A stretch of DNA of 64,000 nucleotides, taken from Pocillopora damicornis (Eukaryota). Every line of letters begins with the position of its first letter. Positions within the stretch are counted from its first letter, which is position 1. A program made the position numbers and the translations under genes. Below, in pieces: positions 13,166 through 16,100 of the stretch. Under the pieces are notes generated by a model. That model was not told the DNA's origin. It saw only the letters and a program-made list of their open reading frames with translations, and ran no database searches. Where the stretch lies: NCBI RefSeq assembly GCF_003704095.1, contig NW_020845377.1, positions 1 to 64,000 on the forward strand, in the 5' to 3' direction.

Positions 13166-16100
13166 ATGCTGTTATCACATGAACAATTTCTTGGCTTGTT
13201 CATGTCGTTTCTTCTGACAGATGGCGCATGGGCAACTGCGACAGGTATTCCGACGCAAAATTTTTTATCGCTGAGTTTGACAAACTAGTAAAATTAGGGT
13301 TGCACTTGCATGCTGAAAGTTACCGATGTATTGTAATAAGGTCTTACTGAGTTATTTTAAAAGAAAGTTGATTTGAAAAGACTTGGAAGTGAATTAAATC
13401 TTTAAAATTTCATGGCTGTTTACAGAAGAAAAGCGTTATTGAAAAATAAACCGGCCAGGGCGCATCCTTTAGTATCGTCGAAAAATTTTGCCAAATATAG
13501 CGAGAAGGGCACATGACGGTCAAAACATTACCACCGATAATGAGTCAGACATATATGTCGACAGATTCTCCTATTCAATCAGTTCACTTTGGCTAAATTC
13601 AAAACACGCGACATAATTGTTCTCTAAAAATTATCAATTTTTCTTGATTTGGACATGGTGACTTAGAAAAATAATAAAAAAAAAAGCCAAAGAAAAAGAA
13701 CACTTCCTTTGTTGGTTGCAACGTCTTTAGGTAGGATAGAATGTATTCACTAAATAACACAACCTGCAGAACTACTTGGGAAGCGAAGATCAAGAAACAA
13801 AATATTATTCTTTCGAGGTTGAGCTAGCCCTTTAATGTTCCAGGTTAATTGTACTGTCTTCTAGTACATGGTCTATACGGATTGTACCAAGTGGCCCAGG
13901 CAAAATCTTTGCTATATCAGGGTAAAATCTTCGTCTATGGGACGATCTACTAACTTGGGAACAGCATATGGAAAATTGAAATCATCACTTGTGTAAATAG
14001 ACCCAAGAATTGCTTCCCTACTTTCAACTTCGTTAGGCCTTTATTTTAGCTTTTATTGTGATTTTTTAGGGATCAAATACTTTTTGGCAACTTGTCCTGG
14101 ACAGAACTGCGATTCAGTTTGTGCAACATTTGGTTTTCAATGTGCTAAAACGGGGCAAAGCTTTCCAGGTTCATCTGCTTTATCTATATTCGAATCTCTG
14201 GGAATTTCGTGCAAAACTATCAACGGCAGCGAACAATATGAAAGTGAAGAGCACCCTTGTTACTTTGCGGAGTCTCACGTCACGAAATGGGTTGGAGTAT
14301 GCGTCGGATTTAAGGGTATCCCTGGGACCATTGACTGTCACACGGCCAACAACACTTACATCCGCAGGTTGTGTCCATGCTTTGATCCTACAGGTAAGTT
14401 GGTCTGCTTTTTTTTTAAACTGATGCAATACTCTCTATCGTTCATCATTATTTTAGCTTAAGTTCTTGTTAGTCATATTAAGAGGCTCTCTCTACCAATT
14501 ACCAATAAAAGTTGGTTTAACTACCAACGTGTCAATTTGTGAACTAATCTAGAAATATCCAAGGCTTCGTACGTTTGGACGGTCCAGTATTCTAAATCCA
14601 AACTTTTGAATAATGAAGCGGTGGATCTTGTTTCTTTCCCAAAAGCTACTCTAAGCCCCAATATATCAAGTAAACCACCATCTAAAATAAAACGTTCGAC
14701 GAAGAAATTTTACATTACAGGAGGACGTTTTTCCACGAAAGCACCTCCAACTGCGACAGAACCTTCCAGTGCTCGAAGAGCTCCAACTACAACATAAGCT
14801 CCCACCACAAAAAGAGCTTCAGCCACGAAAAACCTCTCTCTCCCCACATAGCTCCATCTAAAGCAGGAATTTCCACCACAAAAAGAGCTCTTGGTACTAT
14901 GGAACCTTCCGCGAATCAAAGGACATCTGCTGTAAAATCGCCCATCCCAGAGGAACGAACCGGAAAACCAACAGGGGAAACTAAGAACACTTCATCTGAC
15001 AACAAAGAACATTCGGGAGCGAACCCTCCAGAACAGCAGATAGGAACAAGCGGCGATGCCGATAGAACAGCTCTTATTGTTGTAGCAGTTATTGCTGCTG
15101 TTTTAGTGCTCTGTCTTTTGGGATTAGCAGTTATTTTCATGAGGAATAAGAGGAAATTTATCAGGTATTTTCGATCAAATACGTGTTGGTTAATTTACGT
15201 AGTTCTCACTTATCTCCAACTTTGATTATGTTACTGGTCGTGGACAAATGTCAGTTTAATGCAGAACGTAATTTACCCTTGATATAATGAGCCTATTACG
15301 TCTCAAACCATCGTTGCTGGTCCTCAGAAACGTGAGCTTAAAGGACTGCAGTTCAAGAAGGGGATGGCAGTAAATTCATAGCACAACGTCATAATGGTAA
15401 ATTAAGTTGTCATAAGTTGCTTATTGTGACAGTTTCCACTTTAACCCTTTTGTGGATCCTTGATTATGTTGCTGGTCGTGGACAAATGTCAGTGTAATGC
15501 AGAACGTAATTTACCCTTGATATAATGAGCTTATTACGTCTCAAACCATCGTTGCTAGTCCTCAGAAACGTGAGCTTAAAGGACTGCAGTTCAAGAAGGG
15601 GATGGCAGTAAATTCATAGCACAACGTTATAATGGTAAATTAAGTATCTTGGTAAATCATAAGTATCTTATTATGACAGTTTCCACTGTGATCCTTTTGT
15701 AGATCCTTAATTGCTTTAACTTCTTCGTTTACATTTTTGGTCAATCCTCCTCTCCTTGATGTGTCTGCCCTGATCATGAAGGTAGACCATCAATTCATTT
15801 TTTCAGTGAACGACAATTTAAAAGGACCCGCCTTGAAAGAACTAAGAATATAGTGAAGTACTTTTTGTGATTGTTAACTTTAACGGCTCTTCTGTATTAA
15901 ATTGTTCCAAACTTTTAAAGGCCACCTAACCAAGATAGTGGGTTATTTCCTATTGTAAAAATGAAATACAGATGTTTTCCTTCATAGTCAGAAAGAAGGC
16001 ACAGATGTTTATAACGAAAAGCTTAATGTCAAATTTAGCAAGAACAAGAGCGACGCAGTCTTATCTGATACGATGGATGGTTTAGCTGTTGATGAGACTG

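Follow-up and report, generated by a model that had tools for sequence, protein, structure and literature searches.

A coral receptor gene with an MGAT5 C-terminal-like ectodomain in an ApeC-CUB receptor cluster of Pocillopora damicornis

The enzyme MGAT5 (GnT-V; CAZy family GT18) carries a C-terminal domain (residues G628-L741; Pfam PF15024, about 470-557; PDB 5ZIB, 6YJQ and 6YJR) which, in the available sections of the structure papers, is treated as accessory, holds five disulfides and lies apart from the acceptor residues (PMC6107550; PMC7014118). Functional work on the enzyme concerns its N domain, to judge from the accessible portions of two further papers (PMC8889256; PMC12661204), and no function is given for the C-terminal domain in the parts of this literature examined. 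ApeC-containing proteins (PF16977) of amphioxus combine a signal peptide (SP) with a C-terminal ApeC domain that binds peptidoglycan, in a paper that makes no mention of 'transmembrane' (PMC8361754), and in another report ApeC transcripts serve as a marker of one coral immune cell type (PMC8162421). Here we describe gene C, one of four same-strand genes (C to F) for single-pass membrane proteins in a 64,000-nucleotide stretch of the Pocillopora damicornis genome (NCBI RefSeq assembly GCF_003704095.1, contig NW_020845377.1, positions 1 to 64,000, forward strand; hereafter the window). Gene C is spliced and conserved, and its product has a single folded outer domain, homologous to that at the C-terminus of MGAT5. 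On balance we lean toward the explanation that this MGAT5-C-domain receptor stems from a tandem duplication in a cluster of ApeC-CUB receptors, combined with an exchange of ectodomains, and likely senses surface glycans. A literature survey that did not extend to supplements and most subscription journals returned no paper on the domain outside GT18 or on the receptor cluster.

The ectodomain of receptor C

The module is encoded by one exon of 324 nucleotides with AG directly before and GT directly after it (107 whole codons, including 10 Cys; Table 1), and the borders given for it in the initial annotation are exact and the Cys pattern is present. The resemblance to MGAT5, which that annotation had noted, is borne out by profile comparison and by the predicted fold. 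Single-sequence searches of Pfam and the PDB, and a PDB search with a six-sequence profile, gave no match; a 56-sequence profile matches MGAT5 in the PDB at about 26% identity, with all eight core Cys in the MGAT5 spacing, each 94-100% conserved over a 77-row alignment (partial domains left out; P0057, P0061 and P0079 dropped as a fragment and two spurious matches). Structure comparison of the predicted model assigns the module the fold of the MGAT5 C-terminal domain. The top Foldseek ranks for the receptor C model are all MGAT5, but none reaches E<=0.001, nor does any match in the viral library. Weaker ranks below MGAT5 are mostly Link module or C-type lectin-like receptors (TSG-6, LYVE-1, CD69 and Dectin-1), single-pass proteins that likewise hold out a small disulfide domain on a stalk. 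An Atlas query with the domain only scored 0.93 and 0.90 to eukaryotic clusters with 12% PF15024, a lead only, and the whole-protein match was to SRCR (0.75, below threshold).

Unlike MGAT5, receptor C is devoid of GT-B catalytic domains and of type II topology; its module stands free at the N-terminus of a type I receptor, in the order SP, module, stalk, transmembrane (TM) segment and tail. The module further differs from the enzyme domain in occupying one intronless phase 1-1 exon and in missing the last Cys pair, a C-terminal CxxC that is present in 4/4 coral GT18 ends. A genome search with PF15024 gave no match in the window, the module has no Pfam match to ApeC, and an ApeC search of the contig finds genes D, E and F only. 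The fold is known from one protein, and its free, mobile form goes unannotated because Pfam contains no family for it.

RNA support for gene C comes from four runs of three studies. Contigs of three of the four runs contain the joint from the signal-peptide exon to the module exon (13244 to 14070), as well as all four joints downstream of the stalk exon, and the module donor at 14393 splices to either of two acceptors for the stalk, at 14721 and at 14852 (one run each). The short form has an intact frame identical to database protein P0002; Pocillopora therefore expresses gene C, and at least one form of it is intact here. The long-stalk form meets its first stop at codon 160 in the window sequence, and runs X2, X3 and X7, all three that cover the site, differ from the window at 14795 and have one base more at 14827; the broken frame may be an allele or an assembly error. 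The stalk acceptor region (14700-14860) is polymorphic, with extra bases near 14711-14713 in two runs. Ser and Thr make up 25% of the short-form stalk (range 25-28%), which is predicted to be O-glycosylated. The exon for a YCE(L/M) segment keeps an open frame and ends at an AT donor, and the joint 16113-16400 skips it in three of the four runs; Pocillopora gene C has therefore lost one tyrosine motif. This exon is kept in Stylophora, Oculina, Orbicella and Porites.

The plan of SP, module, stalk, TM and tyrosine-bearing tail is common to the gene C orthologs, and the module exon product shares 97% identity with a protein of Pocillopora verrucosa and 59-73% with proteins of Oculina, Orbicella, Porites and further sources. 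No Acropora or Montipora ortholog is among the eight matches listed, though D orthologs exist there, which is weak evidence of absence.

Mobility and source of the module

Free versions of the module occur in diverse proteins. In Nematostella the module precedes EPTP repeats in one type of protein and lies inside an FN3/ion-channel protein in another; in Actinia it stands by itself ahead of a hydrophobic C-terminus, and a jellyfish protein contains it as well. Other arrangements place it ahead of PA14 and SRCR, ahead of DUF2961, or in tandem. The second Nematostella type is exemplified by P0089 (2195 residues; source name PTPRQ), with the module, 12 FN3 repeats and an ion-channel pore domain. 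DUF2961, which corresponds to GH172 in the accessible part of the source (PMC10115798), is fused to the module in three proteins. A deep-profile search for longer proteins, which does not map module architectures, gave only two matches among 7994 scored candidates, both DUF2961 fusions. Gly-[KEMNTR] follows the last Cys in 33/63 module relatives against an 11% background in the protein text, and this excess suggests a phase-1 donor after the module in these relatives as well. Given the varied architectures and the donor signal, the module is an old, mobile class 1-1 module with MGAT5 as one of several hosts. The exon shuffling proposed earlier thus gains support as to mobility, from the symmetrical exon and the several unrelated architectures.

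The donor of the receptor C exon is not the MGAT5 gene itself. A copy taken straight from a coral MGAT5/GT18 gene would account for the homology, and several true GT18 genes do reside in this genome, on contigs other than that of the window (about five GT18/MGAT5-like genes on C1899, C2968 and C3910, three of them clustered on C3910). This source is nevertheless largely refuted and highly improbable: in four rebuilt gene ends the GT18 domain starts in a phase-0 exon, is split by an internal phase-2 intron (4/4) and in two of the four also by a phase-1 intron, and has the extra Cys pair. The four ends separate from 73 free modules at 99% support in an unrooted tree, which gives no direction and whose free modules were chosen by likeness to C, a choice that favors the split; and C resembles the free modules of anemones, a jellyfish and other eukaryotes far more closely. 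Searches with five protein queries, which give lower bounds, found no second free copy in the genome. Weak extra matches on C847 and C2928 do not score with the family profile, and the one on C847 encodes an unrelated protein.

The ApeC-CUB neighbors and a common stalk and tail

Receptors D, E and F are ApeC-CUB-stalk-TM proteins that resemble C in gene plan, orientation and membership of the cluster, and in tyrosine-motif tail exons with a common exon-end motif; C has no ApeC or CUB domain. The view that the module stands in place of ApeC and CUB accordingly holds for what C lacks and D-F possess, and needs amending for E, the ectodomain of which also has an extra phase 1-1 ShK-like exon (28735-28845; E-value 5.6e-8) upstream of its ApeC exon, a further ectodomain change in the cluster. 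Exon phases of C equal those of D throughout (SP 0-1, ectodomain exons 1-1, stalk/TM 1-2, tail exons 2-2). The match claimed earlier for all of D-F is complete for C and D and extends to the located exons of E and F, the SP exons of which were not located. E and F are hand models with all exons GT-AG and in phase, and no RNA joints for E are among those shown.

The case that C and D-F descend from one stalk-and-tail chassis is carried by the matching phase plan, by the ends of the tail exons and by linkage. The last coding exons measure 48 and 60 nucleotides in C and 45 and 60 in E, each followed by a three-residue end, and in these late exons a tyrosine lies two residues before the joint. The pattern [DE]-N-[PILT]-[LVF]-Y-[DEA] plus donor has eight matches in 234 Mb (13 for the control), three of which are in C, D and E, and only these three have a GTRA donor after the motif; as the pattern was written from the C, D and E exons, only its low background is independent. 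Stricter patterns have one and two genome matches (controls 0 and 3). For a motif drawn from D-F only, the chance of landing at the six positions concerned in the C tail is about 2e-5, and a D-tail profile scores 4/6 C-type tails higher than 198 or more of 200 shuffles. C directly precedes D in a fused Stylophora model, and the Porites lutea orthologs of C and D have consecutive accessions on one contig, a proxy for adjacency. We take Stylophora and Porites lutea to represent the two main coral clades, and the C-D linkage therefore appears to span both.

Several comparisons weigh against this reading. Pairwise similarity of the C tail to the D-F tails reaches z of only 1.1-1.7 (6.3 for E-F), profile-profile tail probabilities are only 0.9 and 6.7, with a signal consisting of one short motif, the whole tails neither align nor show significant similarity, and the likeness of stalk and TM is compositional. 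These results would suit C and D-F being unrelated receptors that sit side by side, with a convergent tyrosine motif and no ectodomain swap, the more so as short linear motifs easily arise. We consider this unlikely in view of the motif keeping a constant distance to the canonical donors of C, D and E with no genome-wide excess over the control, the low chance of the D-F-derived motif recurring in the C tail, the matching terminal exon sizes and the old linkage. The chassis asserted in the initial annotation hence receives moderate support from the rare exon-end motif and from adjacency, with whole-tail similarity short of significance; common ancestry of the C and D-F chassis is in our estimate probable, and the tail of C is likely one held in common with its ApeC-CUB neighbors.

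An octocoral and Desmophyllum likewise have ApeC-CUB-TM proteins, and among the matches found the module sits on a tyrosine-tailed receptor only in stony corals; ApeC-CUB is therefore mildly favored as the older ectodomain. With good likelihood, a stalk-TM-tail copy from the cluster would have gained the mobile phase 1-1 module before the Porites-Pocillopora split, its source presumably being the free-module family and not a GT18 gene. Gene C is thus an apparent case of ectodomain exchange, a process already known among invertebrate receptors.

Among 39 ApeC matches in the genome, only those in D, E and F (20403-21038, 29482-30135 and 41218-41862) span ApeC from end to end in one frame; the rest are partial and mostly split near position 75-93. 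Within an F intron, the CUB exon of F and its flanks recur as an inverted 93% copy (about 45607-46068, minus strand). Public models P0131 (D with E and F ectodomains) and P0145 (Stylophora C with D) fuse genes of the cluster and are likely annotation artefacts.

Tail motifs, candidate ligands and other features of the window

Receptors bearing immunoreceptor tyrosine-based inhibition motifs (ITIM, consensus [ILVS]xYxx[ILV]), e.g., those of the Siglec type, resemble C in having an ectodomain, stalk, TM and a tail with such a site and a terminal YxxL. They differ from it in that C has no Ig domains and its ITIM-like site is lost in Porites, and any phosphorylation or phosphatase binding in C is putative. 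The consensus is kept at the conserved tail site in 5/7 sequences and the terminal Y[DE]RL in six, the seventh being a fused model cut at that joint. The better retention of Y[DE]RL, together with the standing of YxxPhi and NPxY as classical adaptor-binding signals, would fit an endocytic or scavenging surface protein in which YxxPhi and NxxY serve in sorting and not as phospho-signaling sites. This we regard as doubtful, for several spaced tyrosines in an acidic context on separate small exons are typical of a docking tail, and the ITIM consensus persists in most sequences. Under the signaling alternative, which we advance tentatively, the module on its O-glycosylated stalk would bind carbohydrate on microbes, symbionts or neighboring cells; upon clustering, kinases would be able to phosphorylate ILYASV, the ITIM-like site, and YDRL at the tail end, and the phosphorylated tail could recruit SH2/PTB proteins, e.g., a phosphatase, to modulate signaling or uptake.

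A glycan is our leading guess for the ligand, still short of an even chance, because the module is fused to GH172 and PA14 (a PA14 lectin is reportedly described in PMC13018970) and because the ApeC domain of its neighbors binds peptidoglycan in amphioxus. The position of the MGAT5 acceptor residues outside its accessory C-terminal domain speaks against it. The module could instead bind a protein, such as an adhesion, matrix or allorecognition partner, and be a structural or docking appendage in MGAT5. The accessible text on MGAT5 reports no sugar contact for the domain, module partners include EPTP and FN3, and the closest weak fold neighbors include protein-binding C-type lectin-like domains of natural killer receptors; the GH172 fusions, the proximity to PA14 and aromatic columns kept at 70-83% in free modules argue the other way, and we rate a protein ligand as possible. 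A bolder version of the glycan reading, in which the MGAT5 domain belongs to an ancient carbohydrate-binding family remotely related to Link/C-type lectins, which stony corals plugged into the ApeC-CUB chassis to form a glycan-sensor cluster reading different sugars (peptidoglycan, host or symbiont) through one tyrosine-motif tail, seems to us rather unlikely.

That a natural receptor has the domain as its sole module implies a role in binding for the domain and provides a small construct suited to glycan arrays. What the MGAT5 tail domain does, including whether it binds sugar, thereby becomes directly testable, which bears on substrate choice by a cancer-relevant enzyme. For corals, C is a conserved candidate recognition receptor within an ApeC receptor cluster, relevant to immunity and symbiosis.

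Table 1. Coordinates of receptor gene C and its neighbors in the window
Feature	Position	Strand	Remarks
C, signal-peptide exon, coding part	13166..13244	+	phase 0-1; start as in database protein P0003
C, MGAT5-C-terminal-like Cys module	14070..14393	+	single exon, phase 1-1, 107 aa, 8 core Cys + 2 extra
C, long-form stalk/TM exon	14721..15164	+	broken in window sequence: in-frame stop and 1-nt deletion
C, short-form Ser/Thr-rich stalk and TM exon	14852..15164	+	phase 1-2, open frame
C, tail exon 1	15988..16113	+	phase 2-2; RNA joints
C, dead tail exon, YCE(L/M) segment	16204..16278	+	donor AT; skipped in RNA
C, tail exon ending DNILYA	16400..16447	+	phase 2-2; ITIM-like ILYASV spans joint
C, 60-nt tail exon ending NHVYD	16780..16839	+	phase 2-2; RNA joints
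C, terminal coding exon, LV-stop	17378..17387	+	completes YDRL
D: SP, ApeC, CUB, stalk/TM, Tyr-motif tail	18371..25246	+	8/8 joints in RNA
E: ShK, ApeC, CUB, stalk/TM, Tyr-motif tail	28735..35158	+	hand model; SP exon not located
F: ApeC, CUB, stalk/TM, Tyr-motif tail	41218..47801	+	hand model; SP and last exon not located; N gaps

Elsewhere the window holds a single-exon rhodopsin-type G-protein-coupled receptor (1328-2245, minus strand) and two Ser/Thr-rich frames on the same strand (4799-5149 and 8430-8879), which are perhaps genes A and B of the earlier lettering. An alpha-L-fucosidase gene spans 54421-61594, its first large frame having a Lys/His/Ser-rich stretch of about 500 residues ahead of the catalytic domain.
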